Under the pieces are notes generated by a model. That model was not told where the DNA came from. It was given only the letters and a program-made list of their open reading frames with translations, and ran no database searches. This document shows, piece after piece, positions 2,906-56,783 of a stretch of 64,000 bases of DNA. Position 1 is the first letter of the stretch. Each line of letters begins with the position of its first letter. Source of the stretch: Candidatus Anstonella stagnisolia (GTDB taxonomy: Archaea; Micrarchaeota; Micrarchaeia; Anstonellales; Anstonellaceae); the NCBI GenBank assembly GCA_902384585.1, contig CABMCJ010000001.1, forward strand, positions 671 through 64,670, read 5' to 3'. Both the position numbers and the translations under genes were made by a program.

Positions 2906-3129
2906 AATTCCACCAACCATCCACGCCCGAAGCCCCTGCCTTGCGGCAGGGGTAAAGGCGTGGTCGTTATTTGCCAACCTAGTACACATCATCAAGCCCA
3001 CTCCTTTAGGCGTGGGTGGTTGACCCTCTATTTTCTCCCGTAATGCTTCCTCCCGCCACCTTATCTCACTGAAACTTAAATAATGTTATTACTGGCGCCC
3101 CTGCCCGCAGCATGCAATAATTTTTAAGC

Positions 3130-4260
3130 ATGCAATCCCAGAATTTTCCCATGCGCCTATTCCGCACGGCTGCACTCGCTGTTTTTCTCATCCTGCTCAC
3201 CTCATTTGTGCACGCGCAAAACTCGGACGCCCCACCTCCGGTTCCGACGGGGGATTACAAAATAACCTTCTACCTGACTGATTCCCAGGGCGCGAAAATA
3301 CCGGATTCGCAGGCATACTTTACCTTTACGAATGAAAAGGGCACAAGCGTGCAGGCCGCCTCCCCAGTGCGTTCAGGCATTGCATACGCATACCTTGACA
3401 GGGGTGACTGGGAGGGCATTGTTGAAGTGGACGACCCGCTCACGCCTGCATACGACTATGCGCTTGCCTTCAACACAAGCGTAAGTTCTGACGCAAACAC
3501 CACCCTTAGCCTGTATGAAATCTCAAGCACGAATTTGCGCATACACGACGAGGCAGGCCTGCTCGTCCCTTCCGTGAGCGTTTCCCTTGACTGCGTGCGT
3601 GTGCCGCCCTCGGAAAAAAACAAATTCCCAAAGGACGCATTAAGCGCAACAAGCTCCCCCGAAGGGACGCTGCTGCTTCGCCACGTCCCTATAGGCAACT
3701 GCTACATCTACGCGGCAAAGGACAACCGCGTTGGAATGATTTCAGTGAACTCCTCGCGCGGCGAAATAGTTGAGCGCACCGCGGTGCTCAAGGACAAGGT
3801 AAAAGACGACATGCTTTCCTCGCTCCCGTTTTTTGTTGTTCTCATAGCTGCACTCATAATAATGTATTTCATATTTGTGAAAAAGAAAGGCGATGAAAAC
3901 GGCGAAGCGCCCCAGCACGGAAAACCAATCCGCTCAGAAGGAACTGCTTCCCACGAAGAAAAGGCGCGCACCGCAAAACCGCACGAAGAAGGCAAGCAAA
4001 TCCCAGATAAACCCTCATCAGTTTCAGCAGAAAAGCTTTCCGGCATCCTCAACACGCTGGACGCGCGGGAGAAGAAAATCGTGGAGCTCGTGCGCAAGAA
4101 TGGCGGGCAGATGAAGCAGTCAAAAATATACCACACCCTCCTTTACCCCAAGGCATCGCTTTCCCGCATGCTGCGCTCCCTTGAGAGGAAAAACATCATC
4201 ACCCTCGAGCCGTTTGGGAACTCAAAATCCGTGCGCCTTTCAGACTGGCTGCAAAAGTAG
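3130..4260 (+). CDS. Membrane-tethered winged-helix transcription regulator (signal/TM, extracytoplasmic beta-rich domain, TM, linker, C-terminal wHTH)
   Basis: N-terminal hydrophobic signal LFRTAALAVFLILLTSFVHAQ. Second TM is LPFFVVLIAALIIMYFIFV. C-terminal LDAREKKIVELVRKNGGQMKQSKIYHTLLYPKASLSRMLRSLERKNIITLEPFGNSKSV is a MarR/TrmB-like wHTH, as in archaeal membrane-associated regulators. Confidence 0.6.
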   Translation: MQSQNFPMRLFRTAALAVFLILLTSFVHAQNSDAPPPVPTGDYKITFYLTDSQGAKIPDSQAYFTFTNEKGTSVQAASPVRSGIAYAYLDRGDWEGIVEVDDPLTPAYDYALAFNTSVSSDANTTLSLYEISSTNLRIHDEAGLLVPSVSVSLDCVRVPPSEKNKFPKDALSATSSPEGTLLLRHVPIGNCYIYAAKDNRVGMISVNSSRGEIVERTAVLKDKVKDDMLSSLPFFVVLIAALIIMYFIFVKKKGDENGEAPQHGKPIRSEGTASHEEKARTAKPHEEGKQIPDKPSSVSAEKLSGILNTLDAREKKIVELVRKNGGQMKQSKIYHTLLYPKASLSRMLRSLERKNIITLEPFGNSKSVRLSDWLQK

Positions 4261-10911: not shown

Positions 10912-11071
10912 GCTCCCATAGTCTAGCCCGGTCAAGGACGGAGCCCTCTCACAACCCTTTTTTGCGCTCCAGATGGGAACGCGCAAAAAAGCGTTGACGG
11001 AAAACCAAAAAATCGTCGGCAAAAATGGTTGGAGCAAGGCTTTAACTCGGGTTCAAATCCCGATGGGAGCG
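10912..11071 (+). tRNA. tRNA-Glu (anticodon CTC) with 85-nt intron at 37/38 (10952..11036)
   Basis: Manual fold: acceptor GCTCCCA/TGGGAGC, D stem GTCT/GGAC, anticodon stem GAGCC/GGCTT, loop CT-CTC-A|A, T arm TCGGG-TTCAAAT-CCCGA, discriminator G. The intron forms a canonical bulge-helix-bulge: central helix CTCT/GGAG, 3-nt bulges CA|c and ca|A, outer helix AACC/GGTT. Confidence 0.8.
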
Positions 11072-17714: not shown

Positions 17715-18851
17715 TTACAGCCTTCTTATTTCCCTTTCCGCGATTTTCCCGACTTTTTTCACGTCCTTTTTTTCAGAGCACACAATAAGCTTCATGCGCG
17801 CCCTGTGCGCATGCGTTAGCGACCTCACAAGCGCGCTCGCCTCCCCGATGGGCACGCTCCTTTTTCCCAAAAGCACCCTTATGGACGCCTCGCGCGCCTC
17901 CTGCGGTGGCACGTCCACAAGCACGCTGCATCCGCATTCCTGCGAAAGCACGGATTGCAGCCTTCCGCTTTTTGCAGCCAAAAGCGCTTCTTTGCCAAGC
18001 TCCCCCATCGGGACCGAATGCGCCCTCTTGTAAAGCCTCCTTGCATACAAGTCCCGCGCAAGCGTGCTTTTGTTTTCCACAAGGTGCGCAAGCAGCTGCC
18101 CATCGTCCATCTCAAGCAGCCCGTCTTCGGATATCCTGCCCTCCCCTATTTCCTCGGAGAGCGCCTGCTGCAGCATCCTGGAAGCAATCCTCACGGTATG
18201 GTGCAAATACACTGCCGCGAACATCATGAACCTCCCGACAAGAAGCGATTCGGCAGCCTCAAGCCCGCCGTGCCCAACTACGAATCTCTTTTTCTCAAGC
18301 GCGCACGTGTTGCAAATCCTCTGCGAATCTATCACGCCGTACGCAACGCCCGTATAATGTGAATCGCGCAGCAAATAGTCCATCCTGTCCGCCCCGATGT
18401 CCGAGCACACAACCTGCCCCATCCCCTTCCCCACAATGAGCTGCGCAATTTTTTTCGCAGAGAAATTCTCACCTAAAATGTCTGCAATCTCCCCCTTCAA
18501 AATCCTCCTCTGCCCTACCTGCTCGTGCGTGCCGAGGATTTCCCTTGTTACAACTTCCGCCTCGTGCGAGAATGCAACATGCCCCACGTCGTGCAGGAGC
18601 GCGGCAAGCCTAATCTGCGCAGCCTCGTCCTCGTCAAGCCCCAAATTCCTGCACATCTCCCCTGCAATGAAAAGCGTGCCTACAGAATGCTCAAAGCGGG
18701 TGTGGTTTGCCCCCGGATACACCAAATTCGCCATTGCAAGCTGGCGGATGTTGCGCAGCCTTTGCATAGGGGCGCTGTCCAGGACTTTTGCCTCAATGGA
18801 ATTCAGCCTCACGCTCCCGTGCACCGGATCCTTGATTACTATATTGTACAT
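17715..18851 (-). CDS. HD-domain phosphohydrolase (dNTP triphosphohydrolase-like)
   Basis: VIKDPVHGSVRL...QRLRNIRQL...HTRFEHSVGT...LLHDVGHVAFSH. Confidence 0.8.
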   Translation of the reverse strand: MYNIVIKDPVHGSVRLNSIEAKVLDSAPMQRLRNIRQLAMANLVYPGANHTRFEHSVGTLFIAGEMCRNLGLDEDEAAQIRLAALLHDVGHVAFSHEAEVVTREILGTHEQVGQRRILKGEIADILGENFSAKKIAQLIVGKGMGQVVCSDIGADRMDYLLRDSHYTGVAYGVIDSQRICNTCALEKKRFVVGHGGLEAAESLLVGRFMMFAAVYLHHTVRIASRMLQQALSEEIGEGRISEDGLLEMDDGQLLAHLVENKSTLARDLYARRLYKRAHSVPMGELGKEALLAAKSGRLQSVLSQECGCSVLVDVPPQEAREASIRVLLGKRSVPIGEASALVRSLTHAHRARMKLIVCSEKKDVKKVGKIAEREIRRL

Positions 18852-18867
18852 ATCCAGTCTCCTCTAC

Positions 18868-18945
18868 GCTCTCTCAAACAACCCTTTTGCTCGCTCCAGA
18901 TGGGCACGCTCGCAAAAGCGTTGACGGAAATTATGCTCTCTCAAA
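18868..18945 (+). mobile_element. Free-standing 56-nt copy of the tRNA-intron module (18879..18934) flanked by 11-bp direct repeats GCTCTCTCAAA
   Basis: CAACCCTTTTGCTCGCTCCAGATGGGCACGCTCGCAAAAGCGTTGACGGAAAT aligns almost base for base with the 5' parts of the tRNA-Glu and tRNA-Ser introns. Direct repeats lie at 18868-18878 and 18935-18945. Confidence 0.5.
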
Positions 18946-19608
18946 TACTCCCCTTCTTTTTTCTATTGCATCCCCTTTTTCGCACATGAGGTGCAGGACA
19001 ACCGTTGCGGCATCCAGCCCCAGTTTTGTTTCCCCTGCAACTTCCGAAACGCTCTTTGGCTTTGAAAGCGCACCTTCAGCCTTCTGCACGTTTTCCGAAT
19101 AGAATTTCCTTGTCGCAAGGTAATATCTCCTGTCAAATGCCCGCACCCCGAGCACGTCCCCGCTTGCAATTCTTGGTTGCAATACGCTCGCAACAAGGCG
19201 AGCCTGCAATTCGTTTTCAACAGTGCAAAAGCCGTTCTTCTCAAGTTCCGCAATAATCGGGATGTTCGGTACCTGCAAACTTTGAAAATTTGCATTCGAC
19301 CCCGCATTTTCCGCAGCCCGCATTTTTTCTTCCATTGGCACCTGCATTTTTCCATAACCCGCGGTCTTTCCCGCTTCAATTTTTGTAGCCTTCTGGAACG
19401 CATTCGTAGCTATGCTGTACACCCCTGTTTTCGCGTATTTTTTCCCGTAAAAAACGTTCACAAGCTTTTTCTTTATGAGGTTTGCAAGAATCGAAAGCTC
19501 GCCTGGCGTAAGCAACCTGTCCACTTTTTCCGGCGTCCTTTCCTCGAATTTTATTGCGGAAAGCTTTTTGAGGAGCGCGTTTTCTTCCGACACAAATTCC
19601 TGCTGCAA
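18931..19608 (-). CDS. Hypothetical protein (225 aa, TTG start as drawn)
   Basis: ORF track only; I see no recognisable motif. It is in frame with the upstream AbrB-like ORF across a single TAA. Confidence 0.5.
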   Translation of the reverse strand: MQQEFVSEENALLKKLSAIKFEERTPEKVDRLLTPGELSILANLIKKKLVNVFYGKKYAKTGVYSIATNAFQKATKIEAGKTAGYGKMQVPMEEKMRAAENAGSNANFQSLQVPNIPIIAELEKNGFCTVENELQARLVASVLQPRIASGDVLGVRAFDRRYYLATRKFYSENVQKAEGALSKPKSVSEVAGETKLGLDAATVVLHLMCEKGDAIEKRRGVFERA

Positions 19609-19650: not shown

Positions 19651-19782
19651 TTACTTTTGCGCAACAATAATGCACGCGCCGCTAACGCTCTCGAAAAGTT
19701 CCGCTTCCCCTTCCGCAAGCCCTGCCTCTGATGGCACCTCAATTGAAAACCCGTTTTGCGTCCTTGCAACTTTGCATTTCAT
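19651..19782 (-). CDS. Small AbrB/SpoVT-like swapped-hairpin domain protein (43 aa)
   Basis: MKCKVARTQNGFSIEVPSEAGLAEGEAELFESVSGACIIVAQK matches the AbrB-type pattern (V.r..g..i.iP.e.gl.eGe.el.....g..ii). Taken from ORF 19651..19833. Confidence 0.4.
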   Translation of the reverse strand: MKCKVARTQNGFSIEVPSEAGLAEGEAELFESVSGACIIVAQK

Positions 19783-19836
19783 AAAACCAATTCCCGTTTC
19801 CCAACCCTGTTTTCCCATCCTCTCGTTTTGCATTCA

Positions 19837-31652: not shown

Positions 31653-32354
31653 ATGTATTCGTACGAACCAAAAGGAAAAAACTTCGGCCGTGCATACGTG
31701 CAGGGCGTGAACGCATCGTTTAAGGACCTGTGCGCAGTGTGCGACTCAGTTCGCGGAAGGAACGCGCAGAGCGCAATTGAATTCCTCGCGGCAGCCGCAA
31801 AGGGAGAGAAGGCAATCGCATACCGCACGCACAACGCCGGAATGGGGCACCGCAAGGAGCTCGGCGGCAGGAAAGGCGGATACCCCAAGAAGGCGGCAGG
31901 CATAATACTTAAACTCGTGGAGAGCGCATACGCGAACGCGAGCATAAAGGGATTCACAAACCTCAAGGTAAAGCACATAAGCGCAAACAAGCAGAACTGC
32001 CTTCCGCGCATGTCCCCGAAGGGAAAGCGCATGAGGATGGACTACGAGACTGCGAATGCGCAGGTAGTGCTTGAGGAAATTTCCACTCCGGCATGGTCAA
32101 AGCCAAGGGCAAAGAAAAAGGCAGTGAAGGCACAGCCAAAAATGCCCGTAGCGAAAAAGGAAAAGCCAGCCGAAGCAAAACCAGCAGAAACAAAAACCGC
32201 AGTTGATGCAAAAACAACTCCAATAACAACGCCGGCAAAAACAGAAACAGTGAATGCTCAAAAATCAGCAACGCCAGCACAAACAACGCCGGCAAAAACA
32301 GAAACAGTGAATGCTCAAAAATCAGCAACGCCTGCAGCATCAAAACCGCAATAA
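31653..32354 (+). CDS. rpl22: Ribosomal protein uL22 with ~85-aa K/A/P/T-rich C-terminal extension
   Basis: YSYEPKGKNFGRAYVQGVNASFKDL...GMGHRKELGGRKGGYPKKAA. The tail contains a 19-aa tandem duplication. Confidence 0.93.
   Translation: MYSYEPKGKNFGRAYVQGVNASFKDLCAVCDSVRGRNAQSAIEFLAAAAKGEKAIAYRTHNAGMGHRKELGGRKGGYPKKAAGIILKLVESAYANASIKGFTNLKVKHISANKQNCLPRMSPKGKRMRMDYETANAQVVLEEISTPAWSKPRAKKKAVKAQPKMPVAKKEKPAEAKPAETKTAVDAKTTPITTPAKTETVNAQKSATPAQTTPAKTETVNAQKSATPAASKPQ
32226..32332 (+). repeat. Near-perfect 57-bp tandem duplication inside the uL22 tail
   Basis: ACAACGCCGGCAAAAACAGAAACAGTGAATGCTCAAAAATCAGCAACGCC occurs twice (starts 32226 and 32283). It encodes TTPAKTETVNAQKSATPA twice. Confidence 0.9.
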
Positions 32355-32365
32355 AAAGTGATTGA

Positions 32366-33100
32366 ATGGGAATAGAAAAGAAATTCATCGAGGATTCAAT
32401 AAGCCTGTACCGAGTTTCGCAGTTTTTGGAAACCGAGCTTGACAGGGCAGGATTCTCACGCGTGCTCATACAGCGCACACCAATGGTGACGCGCATAAAT
32501 GTAGAGGTAATGAACCCCGGAAAAGTTATCGGGAAAAAGGGAAAGAGCATACGCGATCTCACAGACGCGATTGCAAATGAGTTCGGCATAAAAGACCCGC
32601 AGATATCCGCGTCCGAGGTTGGAAACCCGTCGCTTGAACCAAGGCTCATGGCAAAGAAAGCATGCCGCTTCATTGAAATGGGAAAGAAAATCCGCCCAAT
32701 ATTGCATTCATTGCTCAGGGAGATAATGGAGAACGGCGCGCTTGGCGCAGAAATAATCGCAAGCGGCAAAATCGCAGCAAAGGGAGGCCGCTCAAAATCC
32801 TTCCGTGTGTTCGCAGGATACATTCCAAAGGCAGGAGAGCCCGCAAGGCTTGTGCTCCAAAACCACGTTACCGCTTACCCCAAGTCCGGCGCAATCGGCG
32901 TGCTTGTGCGCATAGTCGCGCCCAACACAGTGTTCCCGGACAAGGTCGGCAAGATGAAGAAGATTGAAATCCCCAAGATAATCGCATCCGCAGAGGATGT
33001 TGAGAACGTTGCAAAGCGCAACGAGGCGGACGAGGCAAAGGAAGAGGAGCGCAAGGCAATCGCTGAAAAGCAGAAGCGCCCGCACCCGCAGAAAAGATAA
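32366..33100 (+). CDS. rps3: Ribosomal protein uS3
   Basis: KH-domain N-terminus, conserved order, acidic/basic tail. Confidence 0.93.
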   Translation: MGIEKKFIEDSISLYRVSQFLETELDRAGFSRVLIQRTPMVTRINVEVMNPGKVIGKKGKSIRDLTDAIANEFGIKDPQISASEVGNPSLEPRLMAKKACRFIEMGKKIRPILHSLLREIMENGALGAEIIASGKIAAKGGRSKSFRVFAGYIPKAGEPARLVLQNHVTAYPKSGAIGVLVRIVAPNTVFPDKVGKMKKIEIPKIIASAEDVENVAKRNEADEAKEEERKAIAEKQKRPHPQKR

Positions 33101-33116
33101 ATGAAAAGTGATTCTC

Positions 33117-33413
33117 ATGGCAATAATGAAAAAAAAGGAAATGCGCGAGTCCTCGGACACAACTCTGCAGGAGAAGCTCACGACATACGTGCGCGAGCTG
33201 AACTTCGAGAAGGGCGTTGTGAAGAACGGCGGAAGGACGAGCAACCCTGGCAAAATAAAGGAGCTCCGCCACACGGTTGCGCGCATACTCACGATACTGC
33301 ATGAAAGGAAAGAAAGCAAAACCGTCGGCACAAAACTGCCGCCGGTCGCAGCAAAGCCTGCTGCAAAAAAAGATGCAAAAAAAGAGAAAGTTGAGGTGAA
33401 AAACGTTGCGTGA
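33117..33413 (+). CDS. rpl29: Ribosomal protein uL29 with K/A-rich tail
   Basis: MAIMKKKEMRESSDTTLQEKLTTYVRELNFEKG. The ATG is preceded by GTGAT. Confidence 0.9.
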   Translation: MAIMKKKEMRESSDTTLQEKLTTYVRELNFEKGVVKNGGRTSNPGKIKELRHTVARILTILHERKESKTVGTKLPPVAAKPAAKKDAKKEKVEVKNVA

Positions 33414-33723
33414 AACTTGCCCAAAGTGCGGACTGATGAAGGAAATATGCGCCTGCGACATCCTTGAAAAAGAGGAAGTGCAGACAATCCGCGTATATGC
33501 CACGAAGAAGAAATTCAAGAAACTCGTGACAGTCGTGGAAGGCATAACACCGGACAAAATAGAGGAAACCGCGCGCGAGCTCAAGACAAAACTCGCATGC
33601 GGTGGCACTGCAAAAGGCGGGCTCATCGTGCTCCAGGGGGACCACAAGCGCAAGGCAAAACCCTTGCTCGTGTCCATGGGGTACACAGAGTCCAGCATAA
33701 GGGTGCTTGAAGGCCTCCAATAA
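33406..33723 (+). CDS. sui1: Translation initiation factor aSUI1 (eIF1 homolog)
   Basis: CPKCG...CAC N-terminal Zn motif, then IRVYATKKKFKKLVTVVEGI...KLACGGTAKGGLIVLQGDHKRK. TTG start 8 nt after GAGGTGA. Confidence 0.9.
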   Translation: MRETCPKCGLMKEICACDILEKEEVQTIRVYATKKKFKKLVTVVEGITPDKIEETARELKTKLACGGTAKGGLIVLQGDHKRKAKPLLVSMGYTESSIRVLEGLQ

Positions 33724-33735
33724 TTCGGTGATGAA

Positions 33736-34011
33736 ATGCGCTGCGCACAAAACCTTCCGTTGCATGAGCTGCTGGGAACAACCGCGAAAGTCGTTGGTCC
33801 AAAAGGCAGCACATTCGCCGGATTGTCCGGCATGGTGGTGGATGAAAGCAAGCACACACTCGTGCTCGAGGGGAAAAAGCAGGTGCGCGTCCCGAAAAAG
33901 GGATGCACATTTGTGTTCGCATATGAGGGGAAAAAGACAAGGCTGGAAGGCAAGGAAATTGCATTCCGTGCCGAGGAGCGCATAAAGAAAGCGAAACCTC
34001 ATGTACAATAA
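33736..34011 (+). CDS. rnp1: RNase P protein component 1 (Rpp29/Pop4)
   Basis: HELLGTTAKVVGPKGSTFAGLSGMVVDESKHTLVLE. Canonical position between uL29 and uS17. Confidence 0.85.
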   Translation: MRCAQNLPLHELLGTTAKVVGPKGSTFAGLSGMVVDESKHTLVLEGKKQVRVPKKGCTFVFAYEGKKTRLEGKEIAFRAEERIKKAKPHVQ

Positions 34012-54433: not shown

Positions 54434-54683
54434 GCCGGGGTCGCATAACCTGGTAGTGCGCACGCCTGGAAGAACCCTTTTGCTCGCTCCAGATTGGAGT
54501 GCCCTAACGGGCACTGCTCTCGCGAACGTTCGCGTTCGCTCGATGGGGACGCGCAAAAGCGTTGACGGAAAATCGTCAGCGGATAAGATAATGATATCCA
54601 GCAAGCGTGTGGTCGCAAGGCCGTATGGGTTCAGCGCCCCTTTCGCATGGAAAATGGCGCGCCCAAAAATCCCATTCCCGGCG
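54434..54683 (+). tRNA. tRNA-Ser (anticodon GGA) with 132-nt intron at 37/38 (54472..54603) and a putative ~34-nt T-loop intron (about 54634..54667)
   Basis: Manual fold: acceptor GCCGGGG/TCCCGGC, D stem GCAT/GTGC, anticodon stem CACGC/GCGTG, loop CT-GGA-A|A. The long variable arm is GGTC-GCAA-GGCC. The T arm ATGGG-TTCA[...]AAT-CCCAT is assembled only after removing an insert. Discriminator G. Intron 1 has the central helix CTGG/CCAG and the ca|A bulge. Intron 2 boundaries and BHB are not resolved. Confidence 0.6.
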
Positions 54684-54752: not shown

Positions 54753-55547
54753 ATGATGGAAAAAAATGAGAAGAAAGATTCGCAAATGCGCGATGACAAA
54801 AAAGACAAGGCAGCAGAAAAGGCAATCATAAAGAAGCCTTTCCAGCATCAGCAGGCTGCGCAGCAAATAATACGCGGTGCAGACGGAAAGGAAATCCGCG
54901 GCATTGTGCGCTTGGCCGGAAAGGACATCAAAGGGCAAGTTTCCCTTTCAAATTCCATCACGCGCGTGAAGGGCATTGGCACAAACCTTGCAAAAGCAAT
55001 TTCATCCATAGTTACAAAAGAGCTCGGCGTGCAGCCCAACACGATGGTGGGCGAACTCGACGAGAAGCAGGTAGGCAGGCTTGAGTACGTTCTCTCGCAC
55101 CCCTCAGAATTTGGAGTTCCTTCTTTCATGCTCAACCGCCAAAAAGACATTGAGACAGGCGAGGACATCCACCTCATAGGCACGGACCTTACATACCGCA
55201 CGCAGCAGGACGTCGGATTGCAGAGGGACATTTACACATGGCGCGGCTACCGCCATGCATACGGGCAAAAAGTTCGCGGACAGCGAACGCGCACAACCGG
55301 CAGGACCGGAATGACAGTCGGAGTTCTCAGGAAAAGCATTATGGCAAAGGCAGGCGGCGCGGCAGCCGCAACAACAGGTGCAGCAGCACAGGCAGCAGGC
55401 GCAGCTCCAGTCCCTGGGGCAAAGCCGGCAGCAGGTGCAGCTCCCAAGGCAGCAGCCCCTGCAGCAGGCGCAAAGCCGGCAGCAGGTGCAGCCCCCAAGG
55501 CAGCCGCAGCAGCAAAGCCAGCAGCAAAGCCTGCGGAGAAAAAATAA
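54753..55547 (+). CDS. rps13: Ribosomal protein uS13 with N-terminal (~45 aa) and A/K/P-rich C-terminal (~60 aa) extensions
   Basis: IVRLAGKDIKGQVSLSNSITRVKGIGTNLAKAI...YRHAYGQKVRGQRTRTTGR. The tail is AAGAAPVPGAKPAAGAAPKAAAPAAGAKPAAGAAPKAAAAAKPAAKPAEKK. Confidence 0.92.
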   Translation: MMEKNEKKDSQMRDDKKDKAAEKAIIKKPFQHQQAAQQIIRGADGKEIRGIVRLAGKDIKGQVSLSNSITRVKGIGTNLAKAISSIVTKELGVQPNTMVGELDEKQVGRLEYVLSHPSEFGVPSFMLNRQKDIETGEDIHLIGTDLTYRTQQDVGLQRDIYTWRGYRHAYGQKVRGQRTRTTGRTGMTVGVLRKSIMAKAGGAAAATTGAAAQAAGAAPVPGAKPAAGAAPKAAAPAAGAKPAAGAAPKAAAAAKPAAKPAEKK

Positions 55548-55564
55548 TTTTTTAGGTGATTTTA

Positions 55565-56125
55565 ATGGGTGACCCAAGAAGGCTGACAAAAAAGCACGAA
55601 ACCCCGAGAAAGGTTTTTGATGCGGAAAGGATTTCCACGGAAAGCGCGCTCAAGCGCGAATACGGCTTGAGGAACACGCGCGAGCTGTGGGTAACCCTCA
55701 AGGAGCTGAAGAAAATCCGCCGCGAGGCAAGAAGGCTTCTCTCCCTTGGCGAAAAAGGCAAGGAAGAGAGCACTAAAATACTTGCAAAGCTTTCCAAGCT
55801 TGGTGTAATAACAAAACAGGACGCAACGCTCGAGGATTTGCTCACAGTCACAGTGCGCGACTTTTTGGAGAGGCGCCTGCAGACGCGCGTGATGCGCCGC
55901 TCGCTTGCGCGCACAATGCGCCAGTCCCGCCAGCTCGTGACGCACGGTTTCATCTCGATAAACGGCAAGAAGGTGAACATCCCAAGCTACATGGTGAGCG
56001 TTTCCGAGGAACCTGCGGTTTCCTACTACAAGGCAATAGACGTTTCAGTCCCCGAGGTTGCGCAAAAGCCAAAGCGAAGCGCACACACGGAAGAGGCTGC
56101 CGAAGCGGCACCTGCAGCGGCATAA
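55565..56125 (+). CDS. rps4: Ribosomal protein uS4
   Basis: [16 protein letters not shown]...[24 protein letters not shown]. Confidence 0.93.
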
Positions 56126-56135
56126 GGTGATACTA

Positions 56136-56783
56136 ATGGCAGAGAACGAAGAAAAAAAACACGAGAAAAAAACACAAGTTGCAAAGGAAACAAAGCACGC
56201 TGAAAAAACCGCAGCCCATGCAACGCCGGCAAACGCACCGGCGCAAAATGCTCCGGCAGCAGCAGGCGCAGCACCCTCCGCTCCAACAGCAACACCTGCA
56301 ACTTCAACTTCTGCTCCGGCAGGCGCGGCCACAACTGCTGGTGCAGCAACGCCTGCAGCAGGCGCAGCACCCTCCACGATTCCACCATACAAGCGCGGCC
56401 CCCTGAAATGGGCAATTGCGCACGTGTATTCCTCAAAGAACGACACAATAATCACTATAACCGACCTCTCAGGCGCAGAGACAATCTCAAAGGCATCAGG
56501 CGGGATGATTGTGAAGGCTGACAGGGAGGAAGGAAAGCCCTATGCAGCAATGCAGGCTGCAATAAAGGCGGTCGAAGGCGCAAAGAACCGCGGCATAACC
56601 GGATTGCACATCCGCATACGCGCACCGGGCGGGCACGGCTCGCTCACTCCAGGCGCAGGCGCGCAATCAGTTGTGCGCACAACCGCGAGGATGGGAGTTC
56701 GCGTAGGAAAGATAGAGGACGTTACCCCGACGCCGACTGACACTACAAAGAGGCCAGGCGGCAGGCGCGGCAGGCGTGTATAA
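56136..56783 (+). CDS. rps11: Ribosomal protein uS11 with ~95-aa K/E then A/P/T-rich N-terminal extension
   Basis: Core is [33 protein letters not shown]...[11 protein letters not shown]. The ATG at 56136 follows AGGTGAT; the ORF-track start at 56058 overlaps uS4. Confidence 0.92.

Follow-up and report, generated by a model that had tools for sequence, protein, structure and literature searches.

RESULTS

Organization of the locus

The window, by which we mean the whole 64-kb stretch of DNA that was analysed, carries on its minus strand a conserved gene of unknown function (a 225-aa ORF, 18931..19608) and, downstream of it in the same operon, a gene for a phosphohydrolase with HD and HD_assoc_2 domains (17715..18851), whose position is syntenic with that in the relatives L001 and L002. 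Directly upstream of the ATG of the HD gene lies the original 12-nt intergenic spacer (18852..18863, minus strand), which contains the Shine-Dalgarno-like motif AGGAGA. The spacer is adjoined by a vestigial copy of a duplicated target (18864..18878; minus strand TTTGAGAGAGCGTAG, read as F E R A stop), which matches the gene end of the empty-site orthologues and is in no ORF any longer. Next come an inserted 52-nt unit on the plus strand (18879..18930, CAACCC...GTTGACGGAAA), which runs antisense to both flanking genes and is absent from the orthologous loci, and the used copy of the target (18931..18945; minus strand TTTGAGAGAGCATAA), which provides the last four codons and the TAA of the 225-aa gene. 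The insertion duplicated the C-terminus of this gene, ...FERA. Read on the minus strand, the segment is ...GTA TTT GAG AGA GCA TAA / insert / TTT GAG AGA GCG TAG / AGGAGACTGGAT / ATG. The unit is composed of a 45-nt hairpin (closing pair C18879-G18923, loop TCCAGATGGGCAC) and a 7-nt tail, ACGGAAA.

The preliminary description, made from the sequence alone, had reported a perfect 11-bp direct repeat around a 56-nt insert (18879-18934). The repeat was confirmed: the 11-mer GCTCTCTCAAA has two exact matches in the 64-kb window (18868-18878 and 18935-18945), for which the chance expectation is 0.06, and none of 100 shuffles reached two matches. The insert had been quoted correctly, and its extent was only partly upheld. 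The four bases past each 11-mer are CTAC and TTAT, two transitions apart, and L001 and L002 have CTAT and CTAC there, respectively; the two 15-nt target copies are identical at 13/15 positions, and both transitions are synonymous (GCG->GCA, TAG->TAA). A random 4-nt filler would yield an in-frame stop at this exact spot with a chance of only about 1/20, and homology to the intron family described below stops at 18930. Because the 4-base flanks differ only by silent transitions and those of L001 and L002 are alike, the duplication is likely 15 bp with a perfect 11-bp core and the insert exactly 52 nt (18879-18930), the TTAT at 18931-18934 being better assigned to the duplicated target than to the insert. 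The claimed 11-bp target-site duplication thus held as a duplication, probably of 15 bp, and failed in the sense of a fixed-length transposase product, given lengths of about 0-36 bp across the family. It had also been stated that both repeats encode FERA and a stop on the minus strand, which held, and that the next ATG lies ~13 nt away with AGGAGA, which held in part, as AGGAGA is present and the spacer is 12 nt.

At its other end, the 225-aa gene is separated by a minus-strand in-frame TAA (19651-19653) from a ~55-aa N-terminal domain (ORF 19651-19833). The orthologues are continuous, with 253-282 aa, and L001 reads AAG GAA AAA AGC where the window reads AAG TAA AGC. A pseudogene, a two-piece gene and a sequencing error are each possible.

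Empty sites in relatives

Looking up the exact sequences of the two window proteins gave no match, whereas a homologue search with the 225-aa ORF returned eight homologues, and all close ones end in ...FERA. We compared the loci of three of them, L001, L003 and L002 (87%, 80% and 76% protein identity, respectively). The gene order AMMECR1, unknown gene, HD hydrolase, small ORF and phosphoglucomutase is common to the window, L001 and L002. In both of these relatives, FERA-stop is followed by 12 nt and ATG, exactly as in the window minus the insert and one repeat, and the alignment showed exactly 67 extra bases in the window; the expectation that deleting the insert and one repeat restores the gene end was therefore met. 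A covariance model search of the three loci detected no unit in L001, L002 or L003.

These results show that, in the lineage of the window, 67 bp were inserted into the 12-nt spacer of a conserved operon; the added sequence consists of the 52-nt unit and a second copy of the 11-15 bp gene end. Both genes are intact because the duplicate carries the last codons and the stop of the upstream gene. We infer that the window copy is a tolerated insertion, in which duplication restored a stop codon and did not displace the ribosome-binding site, and that it represents a by-product of the mobility of an intron family and not a working part of the operon.

In L003, an unrelated insert of ~58 nt (885-954) was observed at the identical post-stop position, and it may hold a degenerate repeat of the gene end (GTGTTTGAGCGGGC / GAGTTTTTGAAAGGGC). 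Judging from this different insert, the post-stop site might be a recurrent insertion spot.

The unit as the core of tRNA introns

No tRNA was detected at 18.8-19.0 kb by ARAGORN or Rfam, and the window copy is outside any tRNA. The preliminary description had regarded the insert as nearly identical to the 5' parts of introns in tRNA-Glu and tRNA-Ser. The relationship was confirmed; the wording overstated it, and the '5' part' is better described as a hairpin-defined module. The tRNA-Glu(CUC) gene (10912..11071, plus strand; Rfam tRNA 43.3 bits, fold z-score -4.2) has an 85-nt intron at position 37/38 (10952-11036), which comprises the unit (10952-11003, 80.5 bits with the covariance model) and a tail that closes a bulge-helix-bulge (BHB) motif; helices GAGCC/GGCUU, CUCU/GGAG and AACC/GGUU with two 3-nt bulges were read by hand from the fold. 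The window copy is 84% identical to 10946-11003 over 58 ungapped nt (18873-18930, repeat finder), and the covariance model scored 10953-11003 and 18880-18930 at 80 bits each.

The tRNA-Ser(GGA) gene (54434..54683, plus strand, coordinates read by hand) has two introns, the first of which starts near 54472. Its unit (54472-54571; covariance model matches 54473-54513 and 54525-54571) is broken after CCAGAT by about 48 nt, in which a 30-nt hairpin (GTGCCC-TAAC-GGGCAC) precedes a diverged copy of the first 22 nt of the unit, and this interruption is likely another insert-plus-duplication event with a different insert. The repeat finder paired 18880-18914 with 54473-54507; 22/23 positions of 18879-18901 match tRNA-Ser, with 18880-18901 identical to 54473-54494. 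The 3' block AAAAGCGTTGACGGAAA is common to the window copy, the tRNA-Glu intron and the tRNA-Ser intron. The second tRNA-Ser intron, in the T-loop (about 54633-54666), is unrelated to the unit and is common to the relative L076.

To the left of the insert, the preliminary description had noted that CTCTCAAA|CAACCC resembles the tRNA-Glu splice junction. The likeness is real (8/9 nt; p about 0.02 by a rough estimate), and no convincing repeat of it was found at other insertions.

We scanned one genome per species with the pattern AACCCTTTTNNNNGCTCCAGAT and obtained 44 matches, of which 28 were in Micrarchaeia or Micrarchaeota MAGs and all continued into the rest of the module; about 16 were bacterial, roughly the number expected by chance, and lacked the 3' block. 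A metagenome scan using a pattern from the module's other half gave 33 further matches, and about nine copies in all lie outside tRNAs. No unit was found in viral contigs. In anticodon loops, unit introns occur in tRNA-Glu, Ser, Ile, Gly, Gln, Arg, Leu, Ala, Lys, Tyr and Asp, and other sites are the D-loop of tRNA-Val and the T-loop of tRNA-Tyr and others. In these introns, the unit is typically followed by CGUNAA-AGGGUU and an exon-pairing segment, and tRNA-Gly and tRNA-Lys have one extra intron nucleotide before the first base of the unit (N), so that the hairpin base is not always the RNA splice site. The unit forms a conserved core in BHB tRNA introns across Micrarchaeia. The free copy in the window lacks the tail (..GGGUU and exon-pairing segment), and because this tail is missing it cannot form a BHB and cannot be spliced.

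The window copy is identical at 51/51 positions to a free copy in another MAG (L029) and at 50/51 to intron copies elsewhere, which were the closest tRNA-intron sequences; no identical tRNA-intron donor was found among the copies recovered, the rest of the source genome being outside the search.

Sequence and structure of the unit family

The family consensus is N-AACCC, a 10-bp stem, the loop UCCAGAUGGGNAC, GCGUU-N' and the tail ACGGAAA, where N pairs with N'. The window copy fits this intron-core hairpin family of Micrarchaeia (80.2 bits, E about 1e-21) with all invariant columns present, which amount to 33/52 when the preceding base N is counted. The core is exactly 51 nt in 22/30 genome copies, and the remaining copies have nested hairpin insertions. 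The 13-nt loop is near-invariant across genomes whose proteins share only 50-60% identity. The two ends of the unit are inverted repeats of each other, though imperfect ones (AACCCTTTT / AAAAGCGTT), and their closing pair N-N' covaries (CG 13, GC 11, AU 2, UA 2); this pair is Watson-Crick in 44/45 non-redundant copies. Throughout the stem, 93% of cells were paired, compared with 35-53% for slid-partner controls, and the score was above that of every shuffle. A tandem U.C/C.U mismatch interrupts the stem in half of the family; on the opposite strand, it would be a stable tandem G.A.

In the folds of 18860-18950, only the hairpin was formed on both strands, no better than in shuffles (z -1.1 and -1.7), and the isolated unit was likewise no more stable than its shuffles (z -1.0 to -1.7 for free copy and unit together). 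Structural support for the hairpin consequently rests on covariation, as thermodynamics alone gives none; in our analysis, the covariation means that the structure of the unit is under selection. No Rfam family matched the unit, either at the gathering score or at E up to 10, and no description of the family was found in the open-access literature searched.

Two readings of the unit as a known RNA were rejected. Intron-encoded box C/D sRNAs, such as those in euryarchaeal tRNA-Trp introns, have a C box RUGAUGA and a D box CUGA; by reading, neither box is in the 52-nt unit, and no Rfam snoRNA matched. A hammerhead-like ribozyme was also rejected.

A second conserved module of ~58 nt with two hairpins (..CTTTTTCGC-TCGG-GCGAAAAAG..GCCTTTTTGC..GCAAAAAG..) is nested at the same point of the unit in L014, L032 and L033. 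As it is found in different tRNAs and different MAGs, it is probably a nested repeat family.

Copies outside tRNA genes

The approximately nine copies outside tRNAs, the window copy included, show mixed orientation relative to their neighbours. We applied a uniform flanking-repeat test to 52 non-redundant copies with 200 shuffles. Significant repeats were found only at the window copy (0/200 shuffles), at L037, L065 and L075, and at the rearranged tRNA-Val loci L041 and L079; apart from these two loci, no tRNA-embedded copy in the test had one. The search for duplications at further free copies was positive in three cases, and empty sites were found for two more copies.

At L037, upstream of an aminoacyl-tRNA synthetase gene, the repeat is GTTTTAATCCTAG / GTTTTAATTCTAG, 13 nt with 1 mismatch (about 13-20 bp). 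At L075, a perfect 36-nt repeat spans the ribosome-binding site and the first nine codons of the downstream gene, and this segment is present once in the distant relatives L023 and L064. At L065, a diverged repeat of about 36 nt (27/37 identical) covers a gene end and its stop in the same architecture as in the window, the order being ...CDRYYAKYAT-stop, the unit (antisense), CDRYYTKYANS-stop, 9 nt and ATG. The metagenome contig L058 has no duplication (0-2 bp); there, the unit lies within the stop codon of a gene, and the unit's own AA completes the stop. Among the remaining free copies, the intergenic copy in L029 has a marginal repeat (7 nt, p about 0.06), and no significant repeat flanks the intergenic copies in L018 and L063 or the copy in L017, which lies two bases after tRNA-His. 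In the window, L065 and L075, the first base of the insert is N, with which the hairpin closes; in the window, L065 and L058, the last bases of the insert are ACGGAAA(A). An earlier idea that free copies are introns cut at random 3' points plus filler was dropped, as the filler of L065 is a diverged duplicate of the gene end and three inserts end at ACGGAAA(A).

The empty site corresponding to L058 is in the window itself, at the end of the window orthologue of the interrupted gene (about 33700-33760; CTCCAATAA + TTCGGTGATGAA (12 nt) + ATG). The unit of L065 (minus strand, oriented 3089-3140) has a 51-nt core identical to that of the tRNA-Leu(UAA) intron in L050. An intact unit beside a 27/37 duplicate argues against a dead insertion and suggests that some free copies, at least, are subject to selection or gene conversion.

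Two further observations concern tRNA loci. L018 615-881 is orthologous to L016 998-1754, and the two tRNA-Gln loci differ in the position of the unit: in one MAG, it is the 37/38 intron of tRNA-Gln, and in the other, it lies just past the stop of the upstream gene, before the promoter of an intronless tRNA-Gln, with large nested hairpin insertions. In L041 (4509-6368 and 7100-7500), a group II intron (Rfam RF01999, RF00029) encoding a protein with RVT_1 and GIIM domains lies ~800 nt from a cluster of three tRNA-Val 5' ends, each partial or complete, and one of the three has a unit.

DISCUSSION

Possible mechanism of insertion

The insertion, the discrete unit, its recurrence in independent genomes, the variable length of the duplication and the absence of an orientation preference are shown by the data above. 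The claim in the preliminary description that the intron family is mobile, or derived from something mobile, is supported by the empty sites, the many further copies and the other duplications; taken jointly, a real insertion and mobility of the family at the DNA level are likely.

How the unit moves can only be inferred. Because the duplications vary from about 0 to 36 bp, a classical fixed-stagger transposase is ruled out; the lack of a shared target motif disfavours IS200/IS605-like chemistry, and the discrete ends disfavour plain microhomology-driven template switching. The route we prefer is copy-and-insert via an RNA intermediate, although no such intermediate has been shown and we hold this view tentatively, short of regarding it as probable. 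Exonucleases would trim the excised intron to the stable hairpin and a short 3' tail; a reverse transcriptase or RNA-templated repair would then turn the trimmed RNA into DNA at a staggered break; and fill-in of the stagger would create a duplication of variable length. A reverse transcriptase was found in only one unit-bearing MAG, namely in the group II intron of L041 (RVT_1 and GIIM domains), which might lend indirect support only, as no enzyme is tied to the unit. A Pfam search of the 20 large ORFs in the window detected no reverse transcriptase, transposase or integrase; all are housekeeping genes. The argument from RNA ends is also weakened because the 5' end of the unit is the hairpin base and not always a splice site: in tRNA-Gly and tRNA-Lys, it lies one nucleotide inside the intron, and the reading of the insert 5' end as an RNA splice site loses force accordingly.

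A bolder reading, which we consider no more than possible, is that the unit is an active, structure-defined mobile element of an undescribed kind and the agent of tRNA-intron gain in Micrarchaeia. In such a case, it may survive in tRNA genes because the unit and a short complementary tail are spliced as a BHB intron; the 13-nt loop might be the handle for an undescribed protein or for a processing step of the RNA intermediate; and free copies such as 18879-18930 could be non-spliceable off-target insertions, some of which are perhaps kept by selection.

Alternative explanations

The alternative that survives best is DNA-level copying and insertion without RNA, which remains possible. In the course of replication or break repair, a nascent strand would switch to a unit hairpin located elsewhere, or a hairpin-ended DNA fragment would be captured at a staggered break, and synthesis might return upstream of its departure point, thereby duplicating the target. 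The variable length of the duplications (about 0 to 36 bp) is in favour of this route, as are the rearranged tRNA-Val loci with their repeated 5' fragments. The different 30-nt hairpin beside a diverged 22-nt duplicate inside the tRNA-Ser unit might even suggest a general replication or repair process that is not specific to the unit, and the U.C/C.U mismatch, a G.A pair on the other DNA strand, could point to a structure of that strand. However, microhomology-guided switching should scatter the end points, whereas the checkable inserts (window, L065 and L075) start at the hairpin closing base and three (window, L065 and L058) end at ACGGAAA(A), and no clear microhomology was seen at the junctions.

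It is unlikely that the unit is a miniature non-autonomous DNA transposon (MITE, REP or PATE) moved by a transposase or HUH-family nuclease from elsewhere. The unit does have two discrete ends and imperfect terminal inverted repeats (AACCCTTTT / AAAAGCGTT) whose closing pair covaries, and the siting is REP-like, in spacers just past stop codons and in both orientations. However, the duplication is not fixed (0-2 bp in L058, 11-15 in the window, 13-20 in L037, 36 in L075 and about 36 in L065), and nine left flanks (CAAA, CTA, ATTT, CTA, CAA, GATG, CGCA, TCCC and CCT) share no motif. Elements of the IS200/IS605 type insert without duplicating the target and require a fixed motif there. Furthermore, no transposase was seen in the 20 window ORFs, and the unit was not found in viral contigs.

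A similarly doubtful reading is that the free copy was recruited by the host as a working element, which could be a gene for a small RNA, a regulator acting antisense to the operon, or a hairpin that binds a protein or serves as a terminator. In its favour, the loop is almost invariant across genomes with 50-60% protein identity, free copies keep intact, compensated stems, and the unit of L065 is intact beside a diverged duplicate. Against it, close relatives lack the unit (two empty sites, and a different insert in L003), the orientation relative to neighbouring genes is mixed, unit and flanks fold no better than shuffled sequences (z -1.0 to -1.7), and there are no C/D or H/ACA boxes and no Rfam family.

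Finally, the remnant of a decayed intron-bearing tRNA, for which the unit-bearing decayed tRNA-Val fragments at L041 and L079 might speak, and an assembly chimera via the repeated unit, which is multi-copy and about as long as an assembler k-mer, are effectively refuted because empty sites exist: the 12-nt spacer of the relatives leaves no room for a tRNA, no exon-like sequence lies beside the unit, both flanks are syntenic with the relatives' locus, and the repeat duplicates local sequence, which is impossible for a chimeric join.

Relation to known systems

The way in which archaeal tRNA introns move from gene to gene has been unresolved since 2010. Transposition of BHB tRNA introns was inferred in Thermoproteales (Fujishima et al. 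2010, as cited in PMC3239211, PMC4090602 and PMC10714607), so that transposition among archaeal tRNAs is an accepted inference; reviews state that its mechanism is unknown (PMC4090602). As in Thermoproteales, the lineage has a broad-specificity splicing endonuclease, which in Micrarchaeum is of the epsilon2 type (PMC3239211), and intron gain by transposition is inferred. In contrast, the evidence there, according to the reviews, is the similarity among introns inside tRNAs, whereas here there are copies outside tRNAs, filled and empty sites and flanking duplications, and the moving piece is a hairpin module within the intron that an entire class has conserved. The open-access literature searched yielded no account of a BHB-intron copy that lies outside a tRNA gene, or of target duplications at such copies. 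What appears to be new is the free copies with filled and empty sites and duplications, the sub-intron hairpin as the moving part and the family in Micrarchaeia. The locus and its relatives thereby supply the usual evidence for a mobile element, namely filled and empty sites, duplications, defined ends and recurrence in independent genomes, and with the moving part identified as a 52-nt hairpin, which is conserved throughout one class of ultrasmall archaea, the mechanism becomes testable.

The preferred RNA route would resemble the retroposition of SINEs and LINEs by target-primed reverse transcription. Shared features are the discrete ends with an A-rich 3' end (GGAAAA), the variable target duplications with occasional insertion without one, and an origin in a small, structured, tRNA-linked RNA; the combination of variable-length duplication and a defined A-rich 3' end is indeed present here, as the unit ends in GGAAA(A). 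However, the unit is only 52 nt, it has no poly-A tail, no reverse transcriptase is tied to it, and an RNA intermediate is not shown. REP/BIME sequences with RAYT and the IS200/IS605-derived PATEs are likewise short imperfect palindromes with compensatory changes, located in intergenic spacers just past stop codons in both orientations. Unlike the unit, they are not spliceable introns, no long variable duplications are reported for them, and they use fixed target or flanking motifs and a dedicated HUH enzyme, neither of which was found for the unit. Intron gain linked to integration has been described once, in Caldiarchaeum subterraneum, where a mobile element integrated at a tRNA gene (PMC3293823). 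That case also rests on population or lineage comparison, direct repeats of tRNA sequence and a new intron, and it resembles the tRNA-Val loci of L041 and L079; it differs in that the element measures 1.9 kb, carries a putative recombinase and has att-like tRNA repeats, whereas the insert described here is 52 nt, geneless and located between protein genes.

In practical terms, unit-bearing introns hide tRNA genes from standard searches. ARAGORN in default mode reported only tRNA-Leu in the window and missed tRNA-Glu and tRNA-Ser, which a whole-window Rfam scan at the gathering score also missed; default tRNA finders thus overlook two of the three window tRNAs because of these introns. Apart from the unit, the repeat finder marked two other regions of the window (55344-56378 and 32172-33383), both of which are coding and contain long, low-complexity repeats rich in Ala, Pro and Lys (GCAGCnCC.. 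units).
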